Positions 15,539 through 37,828 of a DNA stretch of 60,674 nucleotides are shown one piece after another. Made by a program: the position numbers and the translations under genes. This DNA comes from an uncultured Verrucomicrobiota bacterium (GTDB lineage: Bacteria > Verrucomicrobiota > Kiritimatiellia > CAIKKV01 > CAITUY01). The notes beneath the pieces are model-generated. The model was not told the DNA's origin and made no database searches. It saw only the letters and a program-made list of their open reading frames with translations. How positions within the stretch are numbered: the first letter of the stretch is position 1; each line of letters begins with the position of its first letter. The stretch covers positions 1-60,674 of the forward strand of contig CAZHRU010000005.1 of the NCBI GenBank assembly GCA_964535015.1, read 5' to 3'.

Positions 15539-15595
15539 CGCGAAAAGGCCATTAATCCTCCGTCACGCACTGTGATGGAGGGACGTCAGGCACAT

Positions 15596-15625
15596 GGGGC
15601 TCCCGCAAAGGAGCCCCGTTCTTTT
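15596..15625 (+). terminator. Rho-independent terminator
   Basis: GGGGCTCC-cgcaaa-GGAGCCCC followed by GTTCTTTT. Confidence 0.75.
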
Positions 15626-15643
15626 GACAGACAGGTCTATGGA

Positions 15644-16910: not shown

Positions 16911-17052
16911 CACTCATCCATCTGCGAATATATAACCATAGTTTCGGAATCACTCTTGGGATTCCGGAAAGCACGGGGAGAGATCCTCGCGCTGTTGACG
17001 GAAGGACGCTTTTTTGAGTAAGAACTCGTTTCAAAGGAAAGGTCAGTCGAAA

Positions 17053-17709: not shown

Positions 17710-17762
17710 GTAATCGTGCCCAGCGTAGGTTGCGCTGAGGTCCGCGACGATCGTTATCCATG

Positions 17763-17793
17763 GGCATCCGCCGGGAAACCGGCGGATGCCTTT
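17763..17793 (+). terminator. Strong 12-bp GAAA-loop hairpin after the OmcE-like gene (terminator or mRNA stabiliser)
   Basis: GGCATCCGCCGG-GAAA-CCGGCGGATGCC-TTT. Confidence 0.7.
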
Positions 17794-17816
17794 AGGTTAT
17801 TCTGGGACCGCCGGAA

Positions 17817-19010: not shown

Positions 19011-20067
19011 CCCGGCCGCGGACTCCGCACCGTCAGCGCAACGGCATTATTGGCGGTTCGCCAAGACGCCATGGCGGGCATTAGCCGCCTGTGCCTTTGT
19101 TCTGCTGATCGCCGGGTGCGCCACTCGCACCCGTCACGAATGGCTGGTACTGTTCTTCGACGGCGTCCCCCCTGAACAAGGATCCAGCACCAACTCGGTA
19201 ATCTCCACCGCCACGGCGGGCACCAGCGCCGCCACAACCAATGCGCCCTCACGCCCCTTACCCCCTGCGCCCATTGTACACTCCCCCTATGCCGACCGCG
19301 ACTGCAACGCCTGCCACGAATCCGCCTTCTCGCAAAAAATGCGCGGAAAAACGAAAGACGTCTGCCTGGGTTGCCACACCGATCTCATGGATAAGGCCAA
19401 ATCCAAACATAGCCCGGCCGACGAAGGTGAATGCCTGACCTGCCACAACCCTCATGAGTCCCCGCAGAAATTCCTTCTGACCAAAAAACCAACCGCCTTG
19501 TGCATCAAGTGTCATGACGACCTGTCCAAGGTCAAGCACCCGCACGCCCCGGTCCAAGCAGGTGAATGCCTGGAATGCCATAAACCTCACGGCTCCGCCC
19601 AACCCCATCTGCTGTCCAGCAAACCTGAAACACTTTGCGGAACATGTCATACGGACATGGCCAAAGGGAAATATCCTCACGCTCCCGCTGAAGGCGGTGA
19701 GTGCAGCGCCTGCCATAAACCACACGGCTCCGATCTCCCCCATATGTTGGCAAAAAAGAGCGGAGACCTCTGCTTCTCCTGTCATGACAAATTCACCGCC
19801 AAGTTTATGCATGCCCCAGCCAAGGGCGGCGAGTGCCTCGAATGTCACCGCCCCCACGTCTCTTCAGAACCGGCGCTGGCCAGAAAATCCATCAAGACAC
19901 TGTGTTTCGATTGCCACGACAAGGACGAAGTGAAAGGTAAAACCGCCCACTCCACCATGGGGGATACCGCCTGCACCAAGTGCCACGACCCCCACGGCAC
20001 CGACCGCAAGTTCATGCTCAAGTCCACCAACAGCGTCCCGACCGCCGCCGCACCCGCAACCCCATGA
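18973..20067 (+). CDS. 11-heme lipoprotein cytochrome c (doubled-CXXCH repeat type)
   Basis: Lipobox LIAGC then FFDGVP; 11 CXXCH in repeats H.P...G.C..CH.PH.S....LL......LC..CH. Confidence 0.9.
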   Translation: MDLDTPSNKIRPDPAADSAPSAQRHYWRFAKTPWRALAACAFVLLIAGCATRTRHEWLVLFFDGVPPEQGSSTNSVISTATAGTSAATTNAPSRPLPPAPIVHSPYADRDCNACHESAFSQKMRGKTKDVCLGCHTDLMDKAKSKHSPADEGECLTCHNPHESPQKFLLTKKPTALCIKCHDDLSKVKHPHAPVQAGECLECHKPHGSAQPHLLSSKPETLCGTCHTDMAKGKYPHAPAEGGECSACHKPHGSDLPHMLAKKSGDLCFSCHDKFTAKFMHAPAKGGECLECHRPHVSSEPALARKSIKTLCFDCHDKDEVKGKTAHSTMGDTACTKCHDPHGTDRKFMLKSTNSVPTAAAPATP

Positions 20068-22049
20068 CGACGACACGGCACAACGTGCGACGGATCCTGC
20101 TGGCACCCCTCTGCGCCTTCCCTCTTGTGGTCTCCGCACAACCGTCCACCACGGCGCCCCAACTGCTTACGCTGTGGCTCGAAAGCCCATCCATCGTCTT
20201 CGATGCCGAGAAGAAGACTGAAACCCGGAAGAGTCCCGATCCCCTCAACTCCTACGAACAGGAAACCGTCCGCCTGAAACCCTCCTTGGACTTTACCCTC
20301 CGGGGTTCGGTCTACCACCCGAACTTCCTTGAATTCTACTTCCACGGCATGGAGGGCTTGGACTCCGAGGACACCACAACCACCCTCGCCGATGAATACA
20401 ATAGCAGTAGCCAAAGTTGGTTCCATAATTACAACGCCAACGCCTTGTTGTTCAGGGAGAAGCCGGTGACGTTCCAAGTCTTCGCCGAAAAGAACAGAAC
20501 TCGTCGCGAGTACGACTTCTTCTCGACTGTGGAAGTGGATTCACAGCGCTACGGAATGAGTAGCGGAATCAACAACACCAGAGTCCCGGCCTCGGTCAGC
20601 GTTTCTCATCTGGATGAAACCGTGGATGACCAGTTCCGACCTTCCACCCTCACCGAGGATGTGGCGGGCGTCACGCTCCGAAGCCAGCGCGGCATCGACA
20701 ATACCACTGACTTCAACTACCAGTACCGCAACTACGAACGGATGGAGAATGATGACTTCTCACAGTCCGGCACCGAAAACTCCGTTCAGATTGGCGATAC
20801 CGAACGTTTTGGCCTGCGCGATCAATTCAGGCTTGATTCCAACCTGTCCGCCTTCGACCTCGCCGACGATAACGGCTCCTATAACTCGTTGTCGCTCCGC
20901 GAGTCCCTGATCAACCAACATCGCCAGAATCTTGCGAGCATCTACCGGTACAACTTCAGACAGAACGAGCGCGACACCAGCCGGAACCATACGCATGAGG
21001 CCAGCGCGGGTCTCCGCCACAGACTTTACGAAAGTCTGGTTTCTTCCGGCGAACTCCACGGCGAACGCTCCGTTGACGACAGCGCCGAGGACCGCCTGCA
21101 AAAGGACCTCTATGGCGTCAACCTCGGCGAAGACTACACCAAACGCCTCGGCCTCTGGGGCCGCCTGAGTGCCGGCTATCATGTCCGGATCGATCAGGAA
21201 CGATGGAACGCCACCGGCAACGGAGGATTTTCCGTCATCGGCGAAATGCACACCCTTGCCGACGGCATCGTAACGTTACTGAACTACCCGGTGGCGAATA
21301 TCCAGGGCATCCGGGTCATGGACCTTACCGCCTCTCGCCTCTACCTGCCGGGCGTGGACTACACTGTCATCCCCCACGGCAACCGCGTGGAAATCAGGCG
21401 CGGCGTGACCGGCATCATTCCCAACGGAGGATCCGTTCTTGTGGACTACGATGCCACCAAGGCCAACTCCTCCAACTTCCGCTCCTTCGGCGACATGGCC
21501 TCGCTCCGGTTGGACCTTTTCGGGGATTTGATCGGCCTCTATACACGGCATGGACGGCAACGGTATTCCGGGGACGGCGCTCCTTTGTACCAGGAGTATA
21601 ACAGCACCCTGCTCGGCATGGATATTCACTGGGAGTTCTTCCGCGGCGGCGCCGAGCATGAGATTTATGATTCCGAACAGTCCCCCTATACCGCCACCCG
21701 CCTGTTCGAGACCTTCACTTTCAACCCCAACACCTATTCCATGCTCACCTTCGACTTCCGCCAATCCAACCTGCAATTCCCGGACCAGACGGAAGATCAG
21801 GACATCTACCAATTCATCGGCCAATACCAAGTCAGGGTAACCTCGACCTTGTCTCTCACCGCGGAGGGCGGCCAACAGTTCGAACGCGGATTCGGCGGCG
21901 ACCGTGATGTCACCACCTGGCGCGCCGGCGCCGACTACGCCATCGGACGCCTGACGTTCTCGGCCCGCTACGACCTCCAGGACGAATCCTATCGCGATGA
22001 GGAACGGGACCGCCGCATCATCCACTTCATAGCGAAGAGGGTCTTCTGA
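20064..22049 (+). CDS. Outer-membrane beta-barrel, putative porin of a porin-cytochrome conduit
   Basis: ATG overlaps the cytochrome stop (ATGA); signal peptide; amphipathic strands rich in Y/D/N/S; C-terminal Phe (KRVF). Confidence 0.75.
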   Translation: MTTTRHNVRRILLAPLCAFPLVVSAQPSTTAPQLLTLWLESPSIVFDAEKKTETRKSPDPLNSYEQETVRLKPSLDFTLRGSVYHPNFLEFYFHGMEGLDSEDTTTTLADEYNSSSQSWFHNYNANALLFREKPVTFQVFAEKNRTRREYDFFSTVEVDSQRYGMSSGINNTRVPASVSVSHLDETVDDQFRPSTLTEDVAGVTLRSQRGIDNTTDFNYQYRNYERMENDDFSQSGTENSVQIGDTERFGLRDQFRLDSNLSAFDLADDNGSYNSLSLRESLINQHRQNLASIYRYNFRQNERDTSRNHTHEASAGLRHRLYESLVSSGELHGERSVDDSAEDRLQKDLYGVNLGEDYTKRLGLWGRLSAGYHVRIDQERWNATGNGGFSVIGEMHTLADGIVTLLNYPVANIQGIRVMDLTASRLYLPGVDYTVIPHGNRVEIRRGVTGIIPNGGSVLVDYDATKANSSNFRSFGDMASLRLDLFGDLIGLYTRHGRQRYSGDGAPLYQEYNSTLLGMDIHWEFFRGGAEHEIYDSEQSPYTATRLFETFTFNPNTYSMLTFDFRQSNLQFPDQTEDQDIYQFIGQYQVRVTSTLSLTAEGGQQFERGFGGDRDVTTWRAGADYAIGRLTFSARYDLQDESYRDEERDRRIIHFIAKRVF

Positions 22050-23071
22050 TGCCCGTATTCACCAAGACGGCCAAGACCTCCCTCGTGGCAATTGGCACGA
22101 TCTCCTTCATGGCTGCCCTCGGCAGTGCCGATGCCGCCGCCCCATCCCCTGCCCCCTCATGGCCACCCCCGCCAGCCGGGGAACGCATCAGGTATGTGCA
22201 GAGCATGTCGACCCCCGCCGACATCGGCGCCCGGGTTTCCGTCTGGGGCCGACTCAAGGGCCTCATCACCGGCATACGATCGGACCGGGTCGCCATGAAC
22301 AAACCCTTTGGCGTTTCGACCGATCAGCAGGGCAACCTGTGCGTCACAGATACCGCCGCCGGAGCCATCCTGCTGTTCAATCGTGCCGACCACCGTTTCC
22401 AGCGGTTGGACTCGATCAGCGGCAGACCCCTCCCCTCCCCGGTCGCCGCCCTCGTCCACAACGGCCAACTGTTTGTCGCCGACTCCGCACTGGCAAAGGT
22501 CCTGGTCGCGGACCTCGACGGGCGTCTGCAATTCGAAATCCAGAACCTGATCCGCCCCACGGGACTAGCCCTGTGTGACGGTAAATTGTTCGTGGCGGAT
22601 GCCGGCGCGCACTGCATTGCCGTCTTCGACCTCAAGGGAACCCTCCTCCACCGGTTAGGCTCACGCGGCACCGGACCGGGCGAGTTCAATTCCCCAACCC
22701 ACATTTCCAGCGGCACTAACCATCGCATTCTTGTCACCGACTCCCTTAATGAACGTGTCCAGATTCTTGACATGGAAGGACGAAATCTTGGTATCATTGG
22801 ACGAGTCGGAAGCGGCGGGGGTCAATTCATCCGCCCAAAGGGGGTGGCAGTGGATAGTTTCGGTCACATCTACGTCGCCGATGCCCTGCATGACAACATT
22901 CAGGTGTTCGACGAGACCGGTCGCTTTCTCCTGAACTGGGGAGAATCAGGGTCTGGACCCGGCGAATTCTGGATGCCTTCAGGCATTGCCATCAGTTCGA
23001 AGAACGAAATCTTTGTGGCCGATTCGTACAATAGCCGCGTTCAGGTTTTCCAATACGTGGGGAAGGAATGA
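22049..23071 (+). CDS. NHL-repeat beta-propeller protein (secreted)
   Basis: Signal peptide; repeats GEFNSPTHI, GQFIRPKGVAVDS.G.IYV.D, GEFWMPSGIA. Confidence 0.9.
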   Translation: MPVFTKTAKTSLVAIGTISFMAALGSADAAAPSPAPSWPPPPAGERIRYVQSMSTPADIGARVSVWGRLKGLITGIRSDRVAMNKPFGVSTDQQGNLCVTDTAAGAILLFNRADHRFQRLDSISGRPLPSPVAALVHNGQLFVADSALAKVLVADLDGRLQFEIQNLIRPTGLALCDGKLFVADAGAHCIAVFDLKGTLLHRLGSRGTGPGEFNSPTHISSGTNHRILVTDSLNERVQILDMEGRNLGIIGRVGSGGGQFIRPKGVAVDSFGHIYVADALHDNIQVFDETGRFLLNWGESGSGPGEFWMPSGIAISSKNEIFVADSYNSRVQVFQYVGKE

Positions 23072-24861
23072 TAACGATCCGCATTTCAGCAAACCGATCC
23101 CAAGAGGCAGGGCGCACCGTCCCGGGGTGCCGCCTCGGGCTGGCCCTTTGCGTTTGGATCCTTCTGACAGTGACCGGCGCCGAGGCGAAAGGTGTCAGCG
23201 GCTCCAAACACGACCTCTCCGCCTCCGGTGGCAGTTCCATCAGGGCGTCCGCCGAAGGCGACGTGTGTATCTTCTGCCATGCCCCCCACAATGGATCCAG
23301 CGAAGCCCCACTCTGGAACCGCTACACACAAAAGACATTCTATACCCCCTATTCCAGTCCAACGCTCAAGGCAACCATCGGTCAGCCAACCGGCGCGTCC
23401 AAACTCTGCCTGAGTTGCCACGATGGAACCGTTGCCCTTGGCATGGTGCGTAGCCGCTCGAAACCAATCCCGCTTTCAGGCGGACACAGCAAAATGCCGG
23501 CAGGCCGCGCCAAACTGGGAACCGATCTCTCCGACGATCACCCCATCTCCTTCACGTATGACGCCGCCTTGCTCGCCAAAAACACGCAGTTAAAAAGCCC
23601 GGCGTCATTGAAAACCGCCGCGCGCCCCGACAAGTCCGGCCAGGTTCAGTGCACCTCCTGCCACGATCCACACAACAATGAATACGGCAACTTTCTGACC
23701 ATGAACAACGCTCAATCCGCCTTGTGCATATCCTGCCACGACATGACGTACTGGGCCACCTCCGACCATCGCACCTCTGCAAAACAGTGGAACGGGCAAG
23801 GCCAGAATCCCTGGCCGCATACCGAGGGCAAGACCGTTGCCGACAACGGGTGCGAGAACTGCCATTCCCCCCACCAAGCCGGAACCGCCGCCCACCTGAT
23901 GAACTTTGCCGGCGAGGAACAAAATTGCCTGCCCTGCCACAACGGGAATGTCGCCTCAAAGAACATCCAGGCGGACTTGGCCAAACGCAGTCGCCATGAT
24001 GTGGCCGCCACGACCGGGATTCACGATCCCACCAAGAGCCCCTCCGCCTCCGCACGCCATGTGGAGTGCGTGGATTGCCACAATCCGCACGCCGCTCGCG
24101 GCGGCGCCACCGCCCTCTCCAGCAAAGCATCCCCCCCCGGACTCGACAGCACCCTCCTCGGCGTGGCCGGCGTCAGCGCCGCCGGAAGCGCCCTGAAGGC
24201 CGCCAGTCACGAGTATGAGATCTGCTTCCGCTGCCACGAAAACCAGACGCCCGGCCAGACCGCCACCGTGTCGCGCAAGTCCAACCCCTCCAGCCTGCGG
24301 CTGAAGTTTTCCGCAGGCAACGCCTCTTATCACCCCGTCGTGGCGGCCGGACACAATCCCGATGTCCCAAGTCTGATTTCCTCGTACAACGCCTCCAGCA
24401 TCATCAAATGCACCGACTGCCATAATAGCGATCAGGGTCCCGCCGCGGGCGGCCAAGGCGCAAGAGGCCCGCATGGCTCAACGTATGCCCCACTTCTTGA
24501 ACGGAAACTGGTCACCACCGACTTCGGCTCGGAAAGTCCCGCGGCCTACGCTCTGTGCTACAAGTGCCATAACCGGCAAAGCATTCTGAACAACGAGAGT
24601 TTCCCCGAACACAGCCGCCATATCGTGGATGAGAAGACCGCCTGCACCACCTGCCATGACTCGCATGGCGTCAATGAATCCACCGCCCTCATCAACTTCA
24701 ACACGGCCTACGTGTCACCCGGCGCCAGCAGCATCTCATTCCAGCACACAGGCCGGTTCCAGGGAAGTTGTTCCCTCACCTGCCACGGCACCACCCATGA
24801 CAACCAGACCTATGGAACACCCGCCATGTTTTTGAAACCCGCAACAAAACGGCGACGATAG
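23068..24861 (+). CDS. 12-heme cytochrome c (11 CXXCH + C-terminal CX3CH) with an N-terminal OmcE-like module
   Basis: Motifs counted in the translation; the first four hemes align motif by motif with the 17053-17709 protein. Confidence 0.9.
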   Translation: MITIRISANRSQEAGRTVPGCRLGLALCVWILLTVTGAEAKGVSGSKHDLSASGGSSIRASAEGDVCIFCHAPHNGSSEAPLWNRYTQKTFYTPYSSPTLKATIGQPTGASKLCLSCHDGTVALGMVRSRSKPIPLSGGHSKMPAGRAKLGTDLSDDHPISFTYDAALLAKNTQLKSPASLKTAARPDKSGQVQCTSCHDPHNNEYGNFLTMNNAQSALCISCHDMTYWATSDHRTSAKQWNGQGQNPWPHTEGKTVADNGCENCHSPHQAGTAAHLMNFAGEEQNCLPCHNGNVASKNIQADLAKRSRHDVAATTGIHDPTKSPSASARHVECVDCHNPHAARGGATALSSKASPPGLDSTLLGVAGVSAAGSALKAASHEYEICFRCHENQTPGQTATVSRKSNPSSLRLKFSAGNASYHPVVAAGHNPDVPSLISSYNASSIIKCTDCHNSDQGPAAGGQGARGPHGSTYAPLLERKLVTTDFGSESPAAYALCYKCHNRQSILNNESFPEHSRHIVDEKTACTTCHDSHGVNESTALINFNTAYVSPGASSISFQHTGRFQGSCSLTCHGTTHDNQTYGTPAMFLKPATKRRR

Positions 24862-24874
24862 GTCCGAATACCCT

Positions 24875-27568
24875 ATGAGGTCCATGACCATGGATGCGAC
24901 ACCAACACCTGCAAACCATCAGAACGGGTTGCTCATCCGCGCGGTTTCGGGTCTGTACCTCGTGAGCCTGCTCTGGTGCATCCCTGCGGCATCCCTGGCA
25001 AGTGACCCGCCCCATACCAATGCGAACGCCTGCGCCACCTGTCACCTGACCCATAATGCGTTTGGCCCGCTCCTCCTGACCAACGGGGTTGCCAATCTGT
25101 GCTTGTCGTGCCACTCCGCGGGCGGCGAGGCATCCGCCAAGCCCTTTGCCTCCGCCAACCAGGCATGGCCCTGGCCGGGTCTACCCGCCGCTACAAACGC
25201 CTCCGGCACCTCCCACCGCTGGGATGCCGGCGCGGCAGGCCATGTCGTCTTCCAGGGCGGCGCCGTGACCTCCTCCACCGGCATCATCTTTCCCGGCGGC
25301 GTCTACACCGGCGCCTACCCGAAGACCTACACCGTGACGATCACCAATGCGGGCAACGCCGGGGTCGCCCGTTTCAACTGGACCGCCACCCTCCCCGGCG
25401 GCGGTGCCGGCACGAACCTGCTCGCCGCCACCAACACCCCCCTCGACCAGGGCATTCTCCTCACCTTCGCCAACGGAACCGGCGTATCCTTCCAAGTCAA
25501 TGACCGCTGGATCATCCCCGTCCGTCCCGATCTGCGCGCACCCACCAATACGTTCATGCTGACCCGCCTCGTCAATGGATCCGTCGTTTGCTCCACCTGC
25601 CACGACCAGCATAGCCAACTCAAGACGCCCTTCGATCCGGCCGCGCCGACGAACACCACCTCTGCCGGCCGTCATTTCATGCGCGTGGCTAACGATCAGA
25701 ACCAGATGTGCCTGGACTGCCACGCCACCCGCAATGTCACCAACGCGATTCAGGGATCTCACCCAGTGGGCATCAGCACCCTTTCCAACACCCTGTACAA
25801 ACTCCCCGCCTCCCTGCCTCTCTCGAAAACCATCAACCATGTCGGTTGCCTGACCTGCCACACTCCCCACTACGCCCCCGCCAACAACGGCATGCTCCTC
25901 CGCATGACCAATACCCTCGCCCTCTGCGTGGATTGCCACCAACTGGCCAACACCAATACCCCCGGTTGCCACTTCATCACGACCAATGCCGCCACCCTCT
26001 GGCCGGGCGGCCAATACGGGTCCCTCCTGACCAATCGAACCGATGCCGCCTTGCAGGGCTCCTGCCTGAACTGCCACAGGGTACACGGCTGGCCCGATGC
26101 CGCCAATCCCACCAATGACTACCCGCGTCTCCTCGCCGACCGCGAGGAAAACCTCTGCTTTACCTGCCACGACGGCAACGGCCCCGCCGCCAAGGATGTC
26201 TACGTCGCCTTCACCAACGTCTATCATCATACGGTCCTCGATGCCGAACAGCGCCCGGGCCGCACCGTGGAGTGCCTGGACTGCCATAACGTCCATCAGT
26301 CCATTTCCAACGGCCATGTCTACACCAATTCGGCAACCTCCACCCGCAACCTGGTATCCAACCCGCTCAAGGGAGTCCCCGGTGTCGCCATCACCTACTC
26401 ATCCTTGACCAATTTCTCCGGAGTAACCACAAACCTGTACACCGCCATTCCCCAGTCCACCAATGAGTACCAGATCTGCATGAAGTGCCATTCGGGATAT
26501 GGTTACCCCGTCAATACCGCCGGAACCGCCTCTTTCACCACCAACACCTCCGCGGTAAGCGGCTCCGGCACCCAGTGGTCCAGCAACCTGGTGGGACAGA
26601 CACTCTTTCGCGCCAATGACCCGACACTTTACGTCATCACCGACGTAACCAGTGCAACCAGTCTATCCATCACCCCTCCCTATTCGGGGGCGACTGCCGC
26701 CGGCCAGTCCTTCACCATCATGGGGTTGCCGCCGGGCCTCACCCCCGTCTACACCAACGGAACGGCCGCCTTCACCAACAACAGCACCACCGTCAAGGGA
26801 ACCAGTACCACGTGGGGATCCGGAATGATCGGCCTGTGGATCGCACCCACCTCCACGCCTGCCGTCCTCTACAGGATCACGGCAGTCCTCAACACAACAA
26901 CCCTCACCATCGTCCCGGCCTATGCCGGCGCAAACAGTACCGGTCAGCGCTACCACATAACCGGAGGCACCGACCTCGCCCAGGAATTCAGCCCGATGAA
27001 CATGTCGGGGCACCCCATCTACACGGGCCTGAGCAACTACGTCAACACCCTCGCCCCGCGCGGACTCCTCGCCACCGCCCTCCGCCCGCCATGGAACGCC
27101 AACGTCGGCAACCAAACCATGATGTGCTCGGATTGCCACGACGACACGACCACCAATTACGTCCCCGGCGCTGCTCAGGGTCCCCACGGTTCCGCCTACC
27201 AATACATCCTGCGGGGCCCCAACGGCAACAACTGGCCGAATGTCACCTCCTTCGCCTCCAGTTGGTGCGCCAATTGCCACATCGACAACGTCGGCAAAGA
27301 AATGCACACCCGCGGTGAACACACTGCCGCGAACTGCTACGGATGCCACATCGTCATACCCCACGGCGGCAAGGTCTCCCGCCTCATTGGCGACCGCGAC
27401 ACCATGCCGGCCCGCTACGCCTGGAACAACACACTCACCAACATGCAGGTTTCCGCCTTCAAGAAGACCACCGCCAACAGTTACGCCGAGGGATCCAGCG
27501 GGAACTGCGCGGCCGCCTGCAGTAGCACCGACAAGCATCCCTCAATTTCAGGAGCCGAAAACTGGTGA
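24875..27568 (+). CDS. 13-heme secreted cytochrome c with inserted beta-rich domains
   Basis: 13 CXXCH, a terminal CAAACSSTDKH, two repeated ~68-aa inserts and one N-terminal beta insert; T/N-rich. Confidence 0.9.
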   Translation: MRSMTMDATPTPANHQNGLLIRAVSGLYLVSLLWCIPAASLASDPPHTNANACATCHLTHNAFGPLLLTNGVANLCLSCHSAGGEASAKPFASANQAWPWPGLPAATNASGTSHRWDAGAAGHVVFQGGAVTSSTGIIFPGGVYTGAYPKTYTVTITNAGNAGVARFNWTATLPGGGAGTNLLAATNTPLDQGILLTFANGTGVSFQVNDRWIIPVRPDLRAPTNTFMLTRLVNGSVVCSTCHDQHSQLKTPFDPAAPTNTTSAGRHFMRVANDQNQMCLDCHATRNVTNAIQGSHPVGISTLSNTLYKLPASLPLSKTINHVGCLTCHTPHYAPANNGMLLRMTNTLALCVDCHQLANTNTPGCHFITTNAATLWPGGQYGSLLTNRTDAALQGSCLNCHRVHGWPDAANPTNDYPRLLADREENLCFTCHDGNGPAAKDVYVAFTNVYHHTVLDAEQRPGRTVECLDCHNVHQSISNGHVYTNSATSTRNLVSNPLKGVPGVAITYSSLTNFSGVTTNLYTAIPQSTNEYQICMKCHSGYGYPVNTAGTASFTTNTSAVSGSGTQWSSNLVGQTLFRANDPTLYVITDVTSATSLSITPPYSGATAAGQSFTIMGLPPGLTPVYTNGTAAFTNNSTTVKGTSTTWGSGMIGLWIAPTSTPAVLYRITAVLNTTTLTIVPAYAGANSTGQRYHITGGTDLAQEFSPMNMSGHPIYTGLSNYVNTLAPRGLLATALRPPWNANVGNQTMMCSDCHDDTTTNYVPGAAQGPHGSAYQYILRGPNGNNWPNVTSFASSWCANCHIDNVGKEMHTRGEHTAANCYGCHIVIPHGGKVSRLIGDRDTMPARYAWNNTLTNMQVSAFKKTTANSYAEGSSGNCAAACSSTDKHPSISGAENW

Positions 27569-28977
27569 TTCCCCCCCTCCAGCGTGTTCTCCGTTCGCCG
27601 GGGATTGTGATGACTGAAATTGCGGCCTTGGCTCTCGCCTGTTCGCTGGGCGTACTGTGGCCAACCCTTGCCGTCTTCCAATCCCCCTGGTTCCTCGTCA
27701 TAACCGCCATTGCAGCCCTCTCCCTGCTGATCGCCGTCCGTGATCAGGGGCGCCGCCTGCTCTGCGGCGACGTCACGGCCAGGCGGGTCGGCTCCATGAT
27801 GCTTCATCTCGGACTCATCGCCATCATCGCCGCCGGTGCCTGGCGCGCCCTTTTCTCCTCTGAGGCCGTCGTGGATCTCATCGAAGGCGAAACCCTACCC
27901 CCCGCCCCAACCGCCTGGACCCATCAACCTCCCGGCCTGCTGGCCACCCCCTTTCACCTGACCCGGCCCATCACCCTGGAGGCCCTCCATGGAAGCCGCT
28001 ATCCCGACGGCCGCCTTCGCGATCTCTCGGCCACCCTCTCGGCCGGAACCGTGGCCGTCAATCACGACCTCATCCTCCCGGGCGGACGTATCTTCCTTGA
28101 CCAGACGTTCGGTCCCGCCGCCCTCCTTGAGTGGCATCCGCCGCAGAAGTCGGCCGTATTGCTCGATCCTGAAACCCGCACGGCAACCGCCACGGGGCCG
28201 GACGGACTAACGGCATACCTGCGCGCCCCCCCCATCCGCCCCGATCATGTCGAAGTTCGCGTCATGCGGAATAACGGCCTCCTCTTCTCCGGTGAACTCC
28301 GCCCCGGACAAACCCTGTCCCTCCACGGTGGCGCAACGCTGACCTTGCGCGGCATCCCCCTCTGGACTCGCCTCCGCGGCAGTCACGACCACTCGCACCG
28401 CCTCGCCTACCCCGGCTTTGCCCTCATCCTGATCGGTTGTATCCTGCTCTTCGCACGCACTGCCCCGCCTCAAGGACTGCGCGTCGTCGCGTCCGCACCC
28501 CTCTTCCTGTCGGCCATCCTTCTCGCCGGGTGTAACCGCACCTCAACCGAGGAAGCCCGCCAACTCGTCCTCCGCTACAACACCCTCGTTGCCGAGGCCT
28601 ATCGCCGCGGCGACCCTCACTTGATTGAACCCGTCGTCAGCCTCAACGAAGGCAAGAAACTCACCGGCCTCATCGGCGTTCGCTCGGACCTGGGCCTCAC
28701 CCTCGACTCCGAACTGCTGTCCCTCACGCTCATCGCTGCTGAGCAGCGCGCCCGCAAACTGCGGGTTCAAACAAAAGAGCAGTGGCGCTATCGTGACCGC
28801 AAAATCGGCACCGGTGAACAGGTCGGCGAGGAGTCCTCAGATTCCTACGAGATGCTGTACCTGTTCACTCAGACCAACCGGACATGGATAGTGGATGAAA
28901 TCCAATTCACCTCCCCACCCAGGATCGGCCGCAAACAGATGACCTGGCAGGAATCGCGTAATCCGGAAAAACCATGA
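27565..28977 (+). CDS. Reduced ResB-like protein fused to a C-terminal lipoprotein-like alpha/beta domain
   Basis: F.SPWF, MMLHLGL, V.VNHDL, D..H.LAYPGF, then a hydrophobic stretch with LLAGC and a further ~150-aa domain in the same frame. Confidence 0.7.
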   Translation: MIPPLQRVLRSPGIVMTEIAALALACSLGVLWPTLAVFQSPWFLVITAIAALSLLIAVRDQGRRLLCGDVTARRVGSMMLHLGLIAIIAAGAWRALFSSEAVVDLIEGETLPPAPTAWTHQPPGLLATPFHLTRPITLEALHGSRYPDGRLRDLSATLSAGTVAVNHDLILPGGRIFLDQTFGPAALLEWHPPQKSAVLLDPETRTATATGPDGLTAYLRAPPIRPDHVEVRVMRNNGLLFSGELRPGQTLSLHGGATLTLRGIPLWTRLRGSHDHSHRLAYPGFALILIGCILLFARTAPPQGLRVVASAPLFLSAILLAGCNRTSTEEARQLVLRYNTLVAEAYRRGDPHLIEPVVSLNEGKKLTGLIGVRSDLGLTLDSELLSLTLIAAEQRARKLRVQTKEQWRYRDRKIGTGEQVGEESSDSYEMLYLFTQTNRTWIVDEIQFTSPPRIGRKQMTWQESRNPEKP

Positions 28978-29801
28978 ACGTTTTCACCCTTGAAACCATC
29001 CTGCACTGGACCGGCGTCGGCCTCTACATCCTGGCGGTCATCACCTTCGCCAACGCCATCCTCTTCGCGCATCCCGACCGCACCCGCCGCGCCTGCTGGA
29101 TCACCGCCATCGGCCTCCTCCCCCACTCCGCCGCCCTCGTCGTCCGCTACCTCAACGTCGGCCATGGCCCCTACATGCTGAAGTACGAGGTCCTCTCCTC
29201 CAACGCCTGGATCGCCATTGCCATGCTCCTCGTCTTCATCTGGCGCCGCCCCGCCTGGTCCGCCGCCGCCCTCGTCGTCCTGCCGGCCGCCATCCTGATG
29301 GTTGGCCTGGGCCTCTTCACAAATCCCGAGGCGCGGAACCTGCCACCCACCCTGCGATCCATGTGGCTGGTCTTCCACGTCCTCTTCAATAAACTCGCCG
29401 TCGGCGCCTTCCTGCTATCCGTCGCCACAGCAACCTGCCTGCTTCGCAAACTGGGCGGCGCTTCCGCCCGCTGGCTCGACCGCCTCCCCGCACCCGATGC
29501 CCTTGAGGCCTACACCGTCCGCTTCATCGGATTCGGGTTCATCTTCTGGACCACCACCATCGGCGCCGGCGCCATCTGGGCCCACCAGTCCTGGGGCCGC
29601 TACTGGGCCTGGGACCCCATCGAAACCTGGTCGCTCGTCACCTGGCTGGCCTACGCCACCCTCCTGCATATCAAGGTGTTCTTCCGCCTCTCGGCGCGCA
29701 CCACCGCCTGGAGCACCGTCGCCTGCTTCATCCTCTCGGTCCTCACCATCCTGATCTTCCCGTTTGTGTTCCCTTCCATGCACTCAGCCTATTTCCAATA
29801 A
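28974..29801 (+). CDS. ccsA: Second CcsA/ResC paralog
   Basis: WGRYWAWDPIETW, FHV and MHSAY; multiple TM helices. Confidence 0.9.
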   Translation: MNVFTLETILHWTGVGLYILAVITFANAILFAHPDRTRRACWITAIGLLPHSAALVVRYLNVGHGPYMLKYEVLSSNAWIAIAMLLVFIWRRPAWSAAALVVLPAAILMVGLGLFTNPEARNLPPTLRSMWLVFHVLFNKLAVGAFLLSVATATCLLRKLGGASARWLDRLPAPDALEAYTVRFIGFGFIFWTTTIGAGAIWAHQSWGRYWAWDPIETWSLVTWLAYATLLHIKVFFRLSARTTAWSTVACFILSVLTILIFPFVFPSMHSAYFQ

Positions 29802-31252
29802 TGAGCCGTAAACACCCGGAAATCATGCTGGTCACCCCGCCCTACCATTCCGGGGTCGTGGAGTCCGCCGGTTCCTGGCTGCCCCTCGGCCTCCTTTACG
29901 TGGCTGGCGCCTTGCAACGCGCCGGTTACGGCGTCTCCCTCTATGACGCCATGACCCGTTTCCACACCCTGGAACAGGTCCGGCAAACCATCCGGCGGGA
30001 ACAACCGGACGCCGTCTTTGTCTCCTGCATCACCGCCACCGTCATGGACGGCATGGACGTCTGCCGTGTGGCCAAGGAGGAGTTCCCCGACACCCTCACC
30101 GTCCTCGGCAACACCCATCCCACGTTCATGTATGAGGAAATTCTCCGGGATCACCCCGAGGTGGATGTCATCGTCCGCGGCGAAGGCGAGATTACCTCGG
30201 TGGAACTAATGGACGCCTGGAAAACCGGAGCCAACCCCGGCAACGTCCGCGGCATCGCCTTTCGCGACGGAAACTCCATCGTGGCGACACCCTGCCGCCC
30301 GTTTATCCCCAACCTGGATTCCACCGCTCCGGCCTGGGACCTGGTCCCCTGGAAGGAATATACGTACCGCCCCAAACCCGGATCAATCCTCGCCGTCGTT
30401 TCCTCATCCCGAGGCTGTAAACAACATTGCTCCTTCTGCTCCCAGCGCCTGTTCTGGGAGGAATCCTGGCGCGCCGTCTCTCCCGAATCGTTCGTCAATG
30501 AACTCGAGATGCTCCGACGCCGTCACGGGGTCAACGTCGCCATGATCGCCGACGAAATCCCCACCCTGGACGCCGCACGCTGGGAACGGATTCTCGACCT
30601 CCTGATCGAACGCGACCTCGGCATCGCCCTCCTGCTGGAGACACGGGTTGACGACATTCTACGCGACGCCCACCTCCTGCCCCGCTACCGCCAGGCTGGC
30701 ATCGAACACATCTATGTCGGCGTCGAATCCGTCGACCAGGCCACCCTGGATCTCTTCAAGAAGGACGTCAAGGTCGAGCAGAACAAACGCGCCATCGAAC
30801 TCCTGAACCAGCATGACATCATCTCGGAGACCTCCTTCGTCATGGGTCTACCCGGCGACACGCCCGCGAGTATGGACCGCACCATCGAACTGGCCAAGTT
30901 CTACGACCCGGATATGGCGTTCTTCCTCGCCATCACCCCCTGGCCCTACGCCGATATCTATAATGACGTCAAGGACCACATTGCAGTTTGGGACTACCGG
31001 AAGTATAATTTGGTCGAACCGATAATCAAACCCGACACCATGACGTTGGCCGAGGTTCATGGACATCTCTTCCGGGGCTTCCGTGATTTTTACATGAACA
31101 AGATGAAGCAACTTCCAACCATGCCGGAGTGGAAGCAGGCGTTTATGAAATCACTGATGAAACTCTTGATGGACCATTCCTACCTGAAGGACCAAATGGG
31201 CGGCATGAACCCCCCTTCTATTCAACCTCTTCCCCCTACCCCAGTGAGGTGA
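29801..31252 (+). CDS. Cobalamin-binding radical SAM protein, BchE-like
   Basis: N-terminal B12 domain (PLGLLYVAG); CKQHCSFC cluster motif; ETRVDDILRD and TPWPY segments resemble BchE as I recall it; coupled to ccsA (TAATG). Confidence 0.8.
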   Translation: MSRKHPEIMLVTPPYHSGVVESAGSWLPLGLLYVAGALQRAGYGVSLYDAMTRFHTLEQVRQTIRREQPDAVFVSCITATVMDGMDVCRVAKEEFPDTLTVLGNTHPTFMYEEILRDHPEVDVIVRGEGEITSVELMDAWKTGANPGNVRGIAFRDGNSIVATPCRPFIPNLDSTAPAWDLVPWKEYTYRPKPGSILAVVSSSRGCKQHCSFCSQRLFWEESWRAVSPESFVNELEMLRRRHGVNVAMIADEIPTLDAARWERILDLLIERDLGIALLLETRVDDILRDAHLLPRYRQAGIEHIYVGVESVDQATLDLFKKDVKVEQNKRAIELLNQHDIISETSFVMGLPGDTPASMDRTIELAKFYDPDMAFFLAITPWPYADIYNDVKDHIAVWDYRKYNLVEPIIKPDTMTLAEVHGHLFRGFRDFYMNKMKQLPTMPEWKQAFMKSLMKLLMDHSYLKDQMGGMNPPSIQPLPPTPVR

Positions 31253-31256
31253 CGCC

Positions 31257-32882
31257 ATGAAGCACTACCTGCTCCTCCTGCTCTCCACCTTCCTCCTCAG
31301 CATGACAACCCATGCCGCCGCCCCAACCGTCACACCGCTGACCAGTTACTCGGCATCCCTGCAGTCCCCCACCCGAGTCGCCACCGACAGTTCCGGCAAC
31401 GTCTATGTCGTGGATTCGCCCTCCGGCTGCATCGTCGTGTTCGACGCCTTTGGCCGCGTCACCGCCACACACTCCGGTTTCAACCGCCCACTGGGAATCG
31501 CCGTGGACGCCTCGGGCCATATCTACCTTGGCGAGGAACAATCCGGCAGCATCACCGTGCTGGATCCACAGTGGACCCCCCTCTACAAACTCGGCAGTGG
31601 TAATGGCGAGTTCAGTATGCCCAACTTCATCGCCACCGACGCCCCCAGCAATACCGTCTACGTCTCGGACAGCAAGGCCAACACCATCAAAGTGTATTCC
31701 GGAGCCACCCTGATCAACCAGTTCGGAACCGGCGGCACCAACAACGGCGCGTTTGATTTCCCCGCCGGCATCGCCGTCAGCACCGGCGGCGAGGTCTTCG
31801 TCATGGACCAGAACAACGACCGCGTCCAGATCTTTGATCGCAACGGCGTCTATCTCCGCCAGATGAACTTCATGGCCGGAACAAACCGCGTCCCCACAGG
31901 GCGCCGCCAGGGACTGTTGCTCGACAACGCGGGACGCCTTTACGTGACGGACTCGTTCAACGCCATCGTCACCGTCTACGACGCCACCACGGGAACACCC
32001 CTCGGCACCCTCGGAAACTTCGGTCTCGGCGCTGGCAATCTGAACCTCCCGGCGGCCGTCTGCATGGATCCCTTCAACCGGCTCCTGGTAACCTCCGCCA
32101 ACAACGGACGCCTGGAACTCTACGGCATCGACAACTACCTTCACCTCACCGCAACGCCGGCAACCCTCGACCTCGCTTCCGGAACCAATCTCGTCTTCAC
32201 AGCCTCCCTGGGCGGAACAGGCCCCTTTTCCTTCGAATGGCGGAGAAACGCCACCAACCTGCTCGACGGCATCACCATCAACGGATCCACGAACTCCACC
32301 TTGACCATCAGCGGGGCGACCCCCGCCGATAGCGGCCTCTATTCGGTGATCATCACGGGCCCGACCACCATCACCAGTAGCGTGGCGCAAGTCGCGATCA
32401 GCGACCCGCCAACCCTCATCGGCGGCCCTTACAGCCCCACCGTACTCCGGGGCGACACGGTCGACCTTTCGGTTACCGCCACCGGACCCAACCTGACCTA
32501 CCAGTGGCAACACAACAACCTGAACATTGCGGGCGCCACCAATGACACACTGACCTTGACCGGGGTGCAACCCTCCGACGCCGGAACCTATGGGGTACTC
32601 ATCAAAAACGCGGTGGGTGCTCTCAGCCGCACTGCCACCGTCACGGTGCTAAGCCCCCCGCTCGTCATGGAGTTCCTTGGCATCGCGATTCAACCGGACC
32701 AGTCACCCATCCTCACCATCAACTCCGACCCCGGCGCCAACTATTCCCTGGACGCGTCCGATGACCTGTCAACCTGGTCGCCCCTGTTCCCATTCCTGAA
32801 CACAGCGGGAATTCTGAACCTGACCGATCCCGACACAACCAACACCGTCCACCGCTTCTACCGCCTCCGCTGGCTCCCCTGA
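31257..32882 (+). CDS. Secreted NHL beta-propeller with two Ig domains and a Verrucomicrobia-type C-terminal domain
   Basis: NHL repeats; Ig motifs FEWRRN...LTISG...DSGLYSV and YQWQHN...LTLT..QPSDAGTY; tail G.NYSLDASDDL.TW...D......RFYRL. Confidence 0.8.
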   Translation: MKHYLLLLLSTFLLSMTTHAAAPTVTPLTSYSASLQSPTRVATDSSGNVYVVDSPSGCIVVFDAFGRVTATHSGFNRPLGIAVDASGHIYLGEEQSGSITVLDPQWTPLYKLGSGNGEFSMPNFIATDAPSNTVYVSDSKANTIKVYSGATLINQFGTGGTNNGAFDFPAGIAVSTGGEVFVMDQNNDRVQIFDRNGVYLRQMNFMAGTNRVPTGRRQGLLLDNAGRLYVTDSFNAIVTVYDATTGTPLGTLGNFGLGAGNLNLPAAVCMDPFNRLLVTSANNGRLELYGIDNYLHLTATPATLDLASGTNLVFTASLGGTGPFSFEWRRNATNLLDGITINGSTNSTLTISGATPADSGLYSVIITGPTTITSSVAQVAISDPPTLIGGPYSPTVLRGDTVDLSVTATGPNLTYQWQHNNLNIAGATNDTLTLTGVQPSDAGTYGVLIKNAVGALSRTATVTVLSPPLVMEFLGIAIQPDQSPILTINSDPGANYSLDASDDLSTWSPLFPFLNTAGILNLTDPDTTNTVHRFYRLRWLP

Positions 32883-36970: not shown

Positions 36971-37828
36971 ATGAGTTTACCCTTGGAAACGGCGTTGGGA
37001 ATCGGCGGAACGACTCTCTACTGCCTTTCAGCAGTCCTGGCCCTTGCCGCCCTCTTGCGGTCGGGCGATCGAAAAGATAACGCCCCGGTAATCCTGCTGG
37101 CAGGCGGCATGTTGTTGCTCACGGCCTTGTTATCAATGCGACTCTGTTGCGCCGGTTACGTGCCCGTTTTTTCACGGTTTGACGCCTTGGCCGGTTACAC
37201 CCTGGCCCTCAGCGCCGCCTACCTCCTGTTGTCCGTCTTCCGCCCCACTCGCGGCATCGCCGCCATTCTCGTCCCCTATGCCGCCGTCTGCCTGCTTTGC
37301 GGAGTGTCCGCCCTTCGAATGGGCGCCGGGCCCCCCCTGCCCGTCCAGGGCTTCTGGCTGGTCTCCCATGTGATGTCCGCCTACGCCGCCTTCGGAGTCT
37401 TCACCCTGGCCAGCCTCACCGCCGTGCTATACCTCGTTCAGGACAGCAATCTCAAGCGCAAGCGCCTCGGCCTGGTCTGGGAACGCCTCCCTTCCCTGGA
37501 AACCCTCGACCACCTCATGAGCCGTCTGGCAGGGGTCGCCTTTCTCCTCCTCACCATCTCCGTCGTTCTCGGCTTCGTCCTGATCCGCCAGAGTGGCGGC
37601 GGCGACGACTGGTTTACCGACCCCAAGGTCCTGGCCACCATCGTCACCTGGATCGTTTTGGCCGTCTTCGTCCACATGCGCGCCAGCGCCGACCGGCACG
37701 GACGGGGAATCGCCCTGATGGCCCTCGTCGGCCTGGCCTGCCTGCTCTTCGCCTTCGTGGGCGTACCCCTGGTGGCCCACACCCTGCACTCGTTCCTGCA
37801 AATGCACTCCGGAGTGCCCCCGCCATGA
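36971..37828 (+). CDS. HemX/CcsA-family membrane protein
   Basis: SHV, LPSLETLD, WFTDPKV and C-terminal H; eight TM-like segments; directly upstream of hemA. Confidence 0.85.
   Translation: MSLPLETALGIGGTTLYCLSAVLALAALLRSGDRKDNAPVILLAGGMLLLTALLSMRLCCAGYVPVFSRFDALAGYTLALSAAYLLLSVFRPTRGIAAILVPYAAVCLLCGVSALRMGAGPPLPVQGFWLVSHVMSAYAAFGVFTLASLTAVLYLVQDSNLKRKRLGLVWERLPSLETLDHLMSRLAGVAFLLLTISVVLGFVLIRQSGGGDDWFTDPKVLATIVTWIVLAVFVHMRASADRHGRGIALMALVGLACLLFAFVGVPLVAHTLHSFLQMHSGVPPP

Follow-up and report, generated by a model that had tools for sequence, protein, structure and literature searches.

The maturation of cytochrome c is considered well charted, with Systems I, II and III and a few dedicated lyases, and to our knowledge no radical SAM enzyme has so far been listed among its parts. 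In Wolinella dedicated synthases serve CXXCK and CX15C motifs and appear to keep both proposed cysteine pockets (PMC10663686); this confirms what an earlier reading of the present DNA, here called the original prediction, had taken as established, and its other background statements hold up as well. In the uet cluster of 'Candidatus Tenderia electrophaga', NHL propellers and an undecahaem cytochrome are encoded together with a beta-barrel protein and a separate ccsAB pair; the pair was proposed to mature the cytochromes of the cluster, and a radical SAM gene has no mention in that paper (bioRxiv 10.1101/2022.05.06.490989).

The window analysed here is the whole stretch of 60,674 nucleotides from an uncultured Verrucomicrobiota bacterium (GCA_964535015.1, contig CAZHRU010000005.1). 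On its plus strand lies an operon with the order OmcE-like, NHL, 11-haem, porin-like, NHL, 12-haem, 13-haem, ResB-NTF2, CcsA, radical SAM and NHL-Ig. ResB, CcsA and a B12 radical SAM enzyme had been placed directly behind the 13-haem gene, and the coordinates (27565-31252), the strand and the overlaps all match. The GTG start of the 470-aa ResB-NTF2 ORF (27565-28977) overlaps the stop of the 13-haem gene (27568), the junction of ResB with the gene for the 275-aa variant CcsA (28974-29801) is an ATGA overlap, and the latter shares one base with the gene for the 483-aa radical SAM enzyme (29801-31252). The final gene encodes an NHL beta-propeller and Ig-domain protein (31257-32882, Pfam NHL and Ig matches). 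Neither a promoter-like site nor a convincing terminator was found on the plus strand between 17014 and 32882. The ResB-NTF2, CcsA and radical SAM genes are translationally coupled within a single long extracellular-electron-transfer operon. Haem biosynthesis genes were seen near the module in the window, in locus L050 and in Actinomycetota loci. An ordinary, housekeeping-type ResB and CcsA pair on the minus strand of the window (10135-12185; PF05140 148.7 bits, PF01578 172.8 bits) was used for comparison.

The likely client of the module is the outer 13-haem cytochrome (24875-27568, plus strand, 897 aa, with cytochrome Pfam matches). It has exactly 13 CXXCH motifs and ends in GNC(878)AAAC(882)SSTDKH(888)PSISGAENW, of which C878-AAA-C882-SSTDK-H888 (27506-27538) forms a non-canonical motif. 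The upstream 12-haem paralogue (23068-24861, plus strand) has 11 CXXCH motifs and CSLTCH, and its orthologues share a conserved G.C.L.CHGK[DE]H motif. Where the radical SAM enzyme is at least 71% identical, most loci have an orthologue of the 13-haem protein directly upstream of ResB. A tail of the form C-X(1-7)-C-X(0-6)-H near the C-terminus is conserved across phyla and found in many client cytochromes, and the extreme C-terminus of the clients is also conserved, with an E-N/K-W end. In such a C-Xn-C-Xm-H site the His does not directly follow the second Cys. In hhalign the tail is matched to the CX3CH haem site of the paralogue family (probability 89%, E 2.4e-6) and, as judged from this alignment, is homologous to it. 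The atypical last motif noticed earlier (CAAACSSTDKH, versus CSLTCH in the paralogue) is therefore a real and conserved feature. The motif spacing is variable, and clients neighbouring the module genes differ widely; variant CcsA genes adjoin cytochromes with C-Xn-C-Xm-H, CX3CH or CX4CH tails.

The variant CcsA, the haem exporter/synthase subunit of System II, matched PF01578 with 108.2 bits (gathering cut-off 29.9). On TIGR03144, the CcsB equivalog (NCBI's name for the subunit), it reached 138.9 bits, under the cut-off of 187.6, which is consistent with a divergent CcsA subfamily. Divergence had been read from the letters WAWDPIET; the subfamily is indeed divergent, but its WWD motif, WGRYWAWDPIETW (WGRYWAWDP-I216-ETW), is canonical bar one residue, Lys to Ile, and this exchange is a family signature. 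The Lys is kept in the motif of the ordinary CcsA of the same window, WGTYWSWDPKETW. All 75 aligned sequences retain His135, His232 and His270 of the variant, which fall on H761, H858 and H897 of 7S9Y, the P-His1, TM-His2 and P-His2 positions. The WWD Lys was missing from 75 of 76 distinct linked CcsA sequences and kept in 30/30 sampled from the window's phylum. All 74 variant sequences had I, V, T or L in place of the Lys and P, T, G, A or S in place of an Asn, and both residues were intact in 31/31 ordinary CcsA sequences, a set taken mostly from one phylum. In CcsBA of Helicobacter hepaticus these residues are K842 and N890, corresponding to I216 and P263 of the variant. They were placed in the proposed Cys1 pocket beside haem vinyl-2, which was derived from docking in a review and not from a substrate-bound structure (PMC10663686), and K988C in C. 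jejuni left less than 5% of synthase activity (PMC11322641). On the evidence of these alignments, the variant is a CcsA subtype without both polar residues of the proposed first-cysteine pocket, with the ligand histidines and the WWD core kept. Changes of this kind in the pocket could be explained solely by an unusual motif in the apoprotein, the haem being ordinary.

A short ResB gene was found upstream of the variant CcsA gene in every compared locus. In the window, the ResB/CcsB-like membrane part (27565-28530, plus strand) matched PF05140 with 36.6 bits (cut-off 24.6) over residues 72-178 only. H81 in MLHLGLIAIIAAG, within the hydrophobic stretch MLH81LGLIAIIAAG, is a candidate for TM-His1, judged by eye. 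ResB had been called reduced. This fits the ResB part, which is about 320 aa long, but the ORF also carries an NTF2-like domain, fused in frame and probably periplasmic (28531-28977), which starts from a lipobox-like LLAGC at residue 323. In other genomes (loci L008, L010, L012 and L020) the NTF2-like domain is a separate ORF of 177-193 aa, with a match to PF22819 (TcaA NTF2-like, E 5.8e-7) in L012, and phmmer connects these ORFs with the C-terminal part of the window's ResB ORF.

The radical SAM enzyme has the class B layout of an N-terminal B12-binding domain (PF02310, 92.9 bits) and a radical SAM core (PF04055, 78.0 bits) with CxxxCxxC, the cysteines of which (C206, C210 and C213) show no variation in alignment A2. 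No signal peptide was visible on inspection by eye. The enzyme had been described as BchE-like, and BchE is its nearest characterised relative, with the same domain layout, about 39% identity in alignment A1 and 42% by phmmer. It was also the best NCBIfam match by far, at 433 bits as compared to at most 170 bits for every other family. However, identity with BchE was rejected. The score on the BchE model TIGR02026 was 432.8 bits, under the curated cut-off of 481.35, and true BchE representatives scored 769.5 and 760.9 bits. In the tree the CcsA-linked clade (23 rows, support 100/98) was separate from, and sister (100/99) to, the BchE-holding clade with P0135 and P0137. TIGR02025, the model for the BchH/CobN-type chelatase (Mg-chelatase large subunit), had no match in the window's genome, which is 87% complete. 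The gene context differs too: true BchE sits in a photosynthesis gene cluster with phytochrome, haem oxygenase, hemN-like and crtI-like genes and without ccsA, whereas the present enzyme lies in a cytochrome maturation context. The enzyme is 71-81% identical across phyla, indicating a strong constraint on its catalytic function. BchQ and BchR, paralogues of BchE that work in green sulfur bacterial pigment synthesis, are B12 radical SAM C-methyltransferases that tailor the side chains of a tetrapyrrole, bacteriochlorophyllide, so BchE relatives can be methylases rather than cyclases.

Linkage was counted in the 79 related radical SAM loci that had 8 kb or more of flanking sequence. Within 10 kb, ccsA was found at 64 loci, a multihaem gene at 62 and either of them at 72, leaving about 9% with neither; the chance of a ccsA in a random 20-kb stretch is about 2%, a rough estimate that assumes few ccsA per genome of a few Mb. 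The original prediction was to fall if homologues proved unlinked to cytochrome maturation genes, and they came out linked. The linked loci span about nine bacterial phyla and the archaeon Methanoperedens, and the enzyme is paired with the CcsA in Geobacter relatives, Nitrospirota, Desulfobulbaceae, Actinomycetota, Verrucomicrobiota and Methanoperedens. The order cytochrome, ResB, (NTF2), CcsA, radical SAM, NHL was shared by Verrucomicrobiota, Planctomycetes, Geothrix, Hydrogenedentes and Lentisphaeraceae; it was also seen in GCA_001263415.1, where the cytochrome has 58 haems, and in nearly every close locus the radical SAM gene is followed by an NHL-Ig orthologue. Linkage was kept in Gram-positive, Gram-negative and archaeal genomes despite quite different gene orders and clients. 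Among 121 Geobacterales genomes, 65 had both the enzyme and the variant CcsA, 2 the enzyme only, 7 the CcsA only and 47 neither (Fisher p = 1.8e-23, a value that overstates independence because the compared sequences are related). The radical SAM clade is thus tied to one CcsA subtype by gene order and by presence and absence, and in Geobacterales the co-occurrence is near-obligate. The tail module was present in only 29 of the 67 enzyme-positive Geobacterales genomes and missing from 38, and 29 of the 33 tail-positive genomes carried the enzyme (Fisher p = 9e-6, with independence again overstated by kinship). No copy of the enzyme was found in 150 further genomes of the window's phylum. One family member is fused to an SRPBCC domain and has no cytochrome genes within 10 kb, and some are fused to or beside a LuxE-like carboxylate-activating enzyme. 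No LuxE-like gene was found in the window's genome, so the chemistry may differ between lineages.

The synteny, the near-obligate partner and the conserved atypical motif support the dedicated maturation module that was originally proposed as a means to serve non-canonical motifs, to modify haem or the cytochrome, or both, and our literature search, in keeping with the claim that the pathway is not a characterised one, yielded no description of an enzyme-CcsA maturation pathway. We propose, with a probability of roughly 0.5, that the three genes make up an accessory module for cytochrome c maturation which has spread horizontally and would serve a subset of extracellular-electron-transfer cytochromes, with a cytoplasmic enzyme tailoring the haem before export. 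Haem b or its immediate precursor would be altered by side-chain C-methylation, as with other class B enzymes, or by a BchE-like oxidation or cyclisation. Export of the tailored haem would then fall to the variant ResB/CcsA, which would attach it at non-canonical sites that would be outside the reach of the ordinary synthase. Haem rather than peptide is favoured as the substrate because the enzyme pairs with the haem-handling CcsA in 65 of 67 genomes and with the tail module in far fewer, because a metalloporphyrin is the substrate of its nearest characterised relative, and because of the LuxE-like fusions and neighbours. More tentatively, and on balance doubtfully, a cytochrome subset in many anaerobes may carry an altered haem c, made by the enzyme in the cytoplasm (for example by vinyl-side C-methylation or propionate oxidation/cyclisation), exported by a CcsBA variant with a remodelled Cys1/vinyl-2 pocket and attached at the new C-Xn-C-Xm-H type of site. 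Many metal-respiring microbes have the same set of genes, an indication that the assembly of their electron-carrying proteins includes an undescribed step.

The variant ResB/CcsA could also be a dedicated lyase that attaches unchanged haem to CX3CH, CX4CH and C-Xn-C-Xm-H motifs, with the radical SAM enzyme helping indirectly, through haem supply or handling on the cytoplasmic side or through another needed cofactor or lipid. Wolinella has such synthases without a radical SAM partner (PMC10663686), the CcsA changes fall where the substrate cysteine is proposed to bind, client spacing varies, and haem biosynthesis genes lie near the module. However, the enzyme retains its full catalytic motifs under the constraint described above, the window's Ahb haem pathway seems complete even with the enzyme left out, and strict pairing with one CcsA subtype is unexpected for a chemically silent helper; we consider this explanation unlikely.

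Somewhat less probable still is a modification of the apocytochrome in the cytoplasm before Sec export, such as methylation at a residue within or close to the C-terminal Cys/His tail, comparable to the class B reactions on RiPPs and methyl-coenzyme M reductase, with the variant synthase then recognising the modified motif. The weaker NCBIfam matches to RiPP C-methyltransferases and the MCR glutamine methyltransferase would agree with this, the E-N/K-W end could be a recognition element, and the tail module is enriched with the enzyme. Yet the tail is missing in more than half of the enzyme-positive Geobacterales genomes, the neighbouring clients differ widely, RiPP-recognition and SPASM domains were not found in the Pfam search, and BchE outscores all other families. 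That the radical SAM gene is a passenger on a cytochrome island, with an unrelated function, is very improbable. The island is patchy, and absence of the enzyme from the 150 other genomes fits a block transfer, but the linkage survives across cell types, gene orders and clients, and presence and absence track the CcsA subtype.

Pairing of a B12-dependent enzyme with a single haem-export subtype would imply that a step is lacking in the current picture of how multihaem proteins, the carriers of electrons to minerals, electrodes and syntrophic partners, are assembled. An altered haem would call for a fresh look at redox potentials and at how cytochrome structures and nanowires are interpreted, and heterologous production of such cytochromes would need the helper genes of the module. 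Even without haem modification, the two-residue CcsA signature is concrete and testable, as is the C-Xn-C-Xm-H tail, which would extend the genome rules for recognising haem-binding sites.

The variant CcsA aligns to residues 667-897 of H. hepaticus CcsBA (7S9Y/7S9Z) and shares with it P-His1, TM-His2, P-His2 and the WWD core. It differs in having Ile and Pro for K842 and N890 and LPPTL for the LMPVL loop, and the ResB and CcsA of the window are separate and much smaller proteins. As with NrfI (CXXCK) and CcsA1 (CX15CH) of Wolinella succinogenes, an extra CcsA-type synthase lies beside its non-CXXCH client, and an ordinary synthase is retained elsewhere in the genome, here at 10135-12185. In contrast to Wolinella, 74/74 sequences have other residues in place of the Lys and Asn of the Cys1 pocket, the short ResB continues into an NTF2-like domain, and the module has a near-obligate partner in the B12 radical SAM enzyme, for which we know of no precedent in a described cytochrome c maturation system. 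The window operon also resembles the uet cluster, in which electron-transfer genes with NHL proteins and a multihaem cytochrome are likewise accompanied by their own ccsAB.

The original prediction set a ResB, a CcsA and a B12-binding radical SAM gene in one coupled module behind the 13-haem cytochrome gene (24875-27568, + strand; 897 amino acids), and this gene set was confirmed by family matches and overlapping plus-strand reading frames. The ResB frame (27565-28977, +) overlaps with its 5' end the stop of the 13-haem gene at 27568, the ccsA frame (28974-29801, +) overlaps both of its neighbors, and the radical SAM frame (29801-31252, +) overlaps that of ccsA. The ResB had been described as reduced; it is indeed short (PF05140, 36.6 bits, residues 72-178 only), but the rest of its 470 amino acids is a fused NTF2-like domain, with a lipobox-like LLAGC at residue 323 as the fusion point. 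In Geothrix, Planctomycetes and other genomes this domain is a stand-alone gene of 177-193 amino acids. The CcsA (PF01578, 108.2 bits) is divergent, as predicted, at one residue only of its motif WGRYWAWDPIETW. The third protein matched both PF02310 (B12-binding, 92.9 bits) and PF04055 (radical SAM core, 78.0 bits). An unbroken plus-strand gene chain (17014-32882) encloses the module, in the order OmcE-like cytochrome, NHL propeller, 11-haem cytochrome, porin-like protein, NHL, 12-haem cytochrome, 13-haem cytochrome, ResB-NTF2, CcsA, radical SAM and NHL-Ig. On the plus strand of this chain no promoter-like sites were found, and only three terminator-like matches, all weak, were seen when set against the chance expectation for the region.

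The best family match of the radical SAM enzyme was TIGR02026, the Mg-protoporphyrin IX monomethyl ester cyclase BchE, with 432.8 bits against a cut-off of 481.35, and the next-best family was HpnR with 170 bits. Numerous close homologues were found (71-99% identical), which their sources annotate only as "radical SAM protein" or, by transfer, as "anaerobic Mg-protoporphyrin IX monomethyl ester cyclase". After clustering at 50% identity, nine representatives scored 427-576 bits, with a drop in score from there on. True BchE representatives (P0135, P0137) reached 761-770 bits with TIGR02026, whereas members of the query group reached 390-440. A maximum-likelihood tree grouped the query with all CcsA-linked sequences in a single clade (support 100/98), sister (100/99) to the clade that holds BchE. 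The CxxxCxxC cysteines and many further residues are invariant across the CcsA-linked clade. A true BchE gene had phytochrome, haem oxygenase, hemN-like and crtI-like genes as its neighbors and no ccsA among them. A BchH/CobN-type chelatase was not found in the window's genome (87% complete). BchE proper was ruled out by the sub-cut-off score, the sister-clade position and the genome without BchH. A search of PDB sequences with the enzyme returned only distant class B enzymes (TokK, OxsB, AprD4). Because no signal peptide is evident by eye, the enzyme should work in the cytoplasm.

Gene order ties this family to cytochrome maturation. All loci in which the radical SAM protein is 71% or more identical and the flank long enough have, in this order, a multihaem cytochrome, ResB (with the NTF2-like part fused to it or directly after it), a 275-amino-acid CcsA, the radical SAM gene and NHL; the record titles were Verrucomicrobiota, Kiritimatiellia, Lentisphaeraceae, Hydrogenedentes, Planctomycetes and Geothrix. 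The link to CcsA and cytochromes persists in remoter members (43-58% identical). In Actinomycetota MAGs the radical SAM gene has hemL on one side and, on the other, a convergent operon that encodes a giant cytochrome, a TPR protein, ResB and CcsA. Assembly GCA_001263415.1, which we take to be Thermincola ferriacetica, has, in this order, a 58-haem cytochrome, a short ResB, CcsA, a radical SAM-LuxE fusion and NHL, with a ResB/CcsA pair of the ordinary type and genes for haem synthesis after them, and two metagenome contigs likewise show the linkage. A profile scan gave at least 588 relatives in species-representative genomes, those listed including Geobacter argillaceus, Geomesophilobacter sediminis, Nitrospirota, Desulfobulbaceae, Gammaproteobacteria and Methanoperedens. 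Neighbors were counted with mechanical ORF calls within 10 kb of the radical SAM gene in the 79 loci whose flank was 8 kb or longer. A ccsA gene was present in 64 of these and a gene with at least four CXXCH in 62, one or the other being found in 72; ResB occurred in 47, NHL in 33 and a LuxE-like gene in 17.

Some family members are fused to a LuxE-like acyl-adenylating domain and others to an SRPBCC domain; no LuxE-like gene was found in the window's genome at its 87% completeness. The SRPBCC-fused member P0127 (loci L051/L052), whose extra domain is polyketide cyclase/START-like, is an exception to the linkage: its neighbors are formate-dehydrogenase-like and complex I genes, and no cytochrome gene was found up to 10 kb away. 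Locus L083 (1809-6245) carries a variant CcsA (WDPVE), a 191-amino-acid lipoprotein, a different B12 radical SAM protein (445 amino acids, on a very long tree branch), a LuxE-like gene and the family radical SAM gene, which suggests a larger tailoring cassette in some lineages. On a Planctomycetes metagenome contig (L010) a second radical SAM gene of the same clade (2911-4407, -) adjoins an NHL gene and two small OmcE-like genes for four-haem proteins; the ResB-NTF2, CcsA and radical SAM set is a few kb away. One record titled uncultured Bifidobacteriaceae (L042) has the full Verrucomicrobia-type module with a 20-haem gene; this contig is probably mis-binned.

The radical SAM family was present in only one of 151 sampled genomes of the window's phylum, the window's own, so the module is accessory in this phylum and was probably acquired there. 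As co-occurrence within the phylum was for the same reason uninformative, the comparison was made in 121 Geobacterales genomes. The enzyme was found in 67 of them and the DNA pattern W-x-W-D-P-(non-Lys)-(E/Q) of the variant CcsA in 72, a pattern whose backwards-read control matched about one quarter of the genomes. Both were present in 65 genomes and both absent from 47, while the enzyme occurred without the CcsA pattern in 2 and the pattern without the enzyme in 7 (Fisher p = 1.8e-23); since these genomes are mutually related, the evidence is at most as strong as the p value says, yet the association itself is clear.

The window's genome is a 3.0-Mb MAG. Its three ResB genes and three CcsA-like genes are without exception on the window contig, as are 9 of its 12 ORFs that have four or more CXXCH. 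This concentration, together with the absence of the radical SAM family from 150 other genomes of the phylum, suggests that the contig is an acquired island of electron-transfer genes. One ResB/CcsA pair (10135-12185, -) is of the ordinary type and keeps the lysine of the WWD motif. The third ResB (15572-16891, +; PF05140, 144 bits) is full length and lies directly 3' of an 818-amino-acid cytochrome with invasin-like Ig domains, with no adjoining CcsA. The third member of the CcsA/HemX-type haem-handling family is a HemX-type membrane protein (36971-37828, +; PF01578, 83.8 bits), encoded by the first gene of the window's siroheme-route haem biosynthesis operon, upstream of hemA.

The CcsA proteins linked to the radical SAM enzyme form a recognizable subtype. 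We compared 76 distinct CcsA-like ORFs that lie no more than 10 kb from a radical SAM gene of the family. At the position of the WWD lysine 47 of them have I, 18 V, 5 T, 5 L and one K, the last being part of an ordinary ResB/CcsA pair encoded on the opposite strand of locus L018. All 30 CcsA homologues drawn from the window's phylum keep the lysine, as do the ordinary CcsA copies of the window and of GCA_001263415.1. Aligned to Helicobacter hepaticus CcsBA (PDB 7S9Y), I216 of the variant CcsA corresponds to K842 and P263 to N890. Lysine and asparagine were found in 0 of 74 variant as against 31 of 31 ordinary CcsA, the ordinary set being mostly from one phylum; the asparagine position of the variants held P (57), T (5), G (5), A (4) or S (3). 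The loop LMPVL (749-753 of the H. hepaticus protein) becomes L-P-P-[TSA]-[LF]. By docking, D840, S841, K842, E843, V889 and N890 were proposed to form the pocket for the first cysteine of CXXCH beside vinyl-2, and LMPVL, W828 and A829 were assigned to that for the second (PMC10663686). In Campylobacter jejuni the equivalent K988C had less than 5% synthase activity, and the glutamate next to K988 cross-links to a haem vinyl (PMC11322641). A contact of the WWD lysine with a haem propionate, by which Lys to Ile would mean an altered propionate, was ruled out, as the lysine lies on the vinyl/first-cysteine side (PMC11322641, PMC10663686). Because the P-His1, TM-His2 and P-His2 histidines and the WWD tryptophans are fully conserved and residues of the proposed first-cysteine pocket are changed, the variant CcsA looks like a working haem exporter/synthase with a rebuilt substrate pocket. 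His51 (29124-29126) is found in 68 of 74 variant as against 15 of 31 ordinary CcsA, and His64 (29163-29165) in 62 of 74 variants, with Arg in 24 of 31 ordinary CcsA; these two may be extra haem-handling residues.

Besides 13 CXXCH motifs, the 13-haem cytochrome has two more cysteines near its C terminus, in ...GNC878AAAC882SSTDKH888...ENW; its 12-haem paralogue (23068-24861, +) has 11 CXXCH and CSLTCH. The conserved C-terminal module of the 13-haem family reads CxxCH-x-[IV]-PHG-[GS]-K-x-SRL...ARY...F-x-K...Y...C-X(1-7)-C-X(0-6)-H, followed by a short, often Trp-ended tail. Between the second cysteine and the histidine the closest orthologues have a spacing of anything from 1 to 5, and a few family members have a single tail cysteine. 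The same tail module ends multihaem proteins encoded next to the radical SAM and CcsA genes in Nitrospirota, Geobacter relatives, Desulfurivibrio and Desulfarculales, and also the 58-haem protein of GCA_001263415.1; the Desulfarculales proteins end in CSGYCH. Other neighbors of the module have CX4CH near the C terminus. As pairwise BLASTP of the two cytochrome tails was uninformative, profile-profile comparison was used, and it aligned the 13-haem tail with that of the 12-haem paralogue family, N-C-AAA-C-S on S-C-SLT-C-H (probability 89%, E 2.4e-6). From this alignment we infer that the tail cysteine pair either still attaches haem or derives from a site that did. The tail module occurred in 33 of the 121 Geobacterales genomes, 29 of which also have the enzyme (p = 9e-6, in related genomes), and was absent from 38 enzyme-positive ones; the tail is a frequent client of the module, and others exist. 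The PDB held no solved relative in a sequence search with the tail module. A role of the extra CcsA for NrfA, with its presumed CXXCK site, was judged unlikely, the synteny being with tail-bearing cytochromes. Two further features of the 13-haem protein were noted. A beta-rich insert between haem motifs (residues 548-617; 26516-26725) matches the N-terminal part of an F2-pyocin side fibre (PDB 25ve, E 6.9e-9), and is by this match a phage-tail-fibre-like domain inside a multihaem cytochrome. Residues 351-366 (25925-25972), CVDCHQLANTNTPGCH, contain a lone Cys-His pair ten residues past a CXXCH, which could be a single-cysteine or long-spacer haem site.

By these comparisons, the radical SAM enzyme and the variant CcsA subtype belong together, and the proposed substrate pocket of the subtype is altered. 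We infer that the cytoplasmic enzyme would act on haem ahead of export, and that the variant ResB/CcsA would then export the treated haem and attach it at non-canonical sites. Less probably, the pair is a dedicated lyase that uses ordinary haem, for which the altered pocket and the unusual tail sites would be the relevant features and the enzyme an indirect helper. Modification of the apoprotein by the enzyme is also less probable. That the radical SAM gene is a passenger is the least likely reading, in view of the recurrent gene order and the joint presence with the CcsA pattern in the Geobacterales. Haem is favored over a polypeptide as its substrate because the enzyme pairs most tightly with the haem-handling protein and not with any single client, because its nearest characterized relative acts on a metalloporphyrin, and because the carboxylate-activating LuxE-like partners of some lineages fit a propionate-bearing molecule. 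With haem as the substrate, the change of Lys and Asn to hydrophobic or small residues by vinyl-2 would agree with a side chain of larger size and lower polarity, as after methylation, and the kinship with BchE would suit oxidation or cyclization of a propionate.

In the full text of the open literature we found no link of a B12 radical SAM enzyme to CcsBA, and no mention of a radical SAM partner, the Lys/Asn pocket signature or the C-Xn-C-Xm-H tail motif. A dedicated ccsAB pair within an electron-transfer cluster has been described in a Tenderiales preprint (bioRxiv 10.1101/2022.05.06.490989), and verrucomicrobial porin-cytochrome clusters in a peat preprint.
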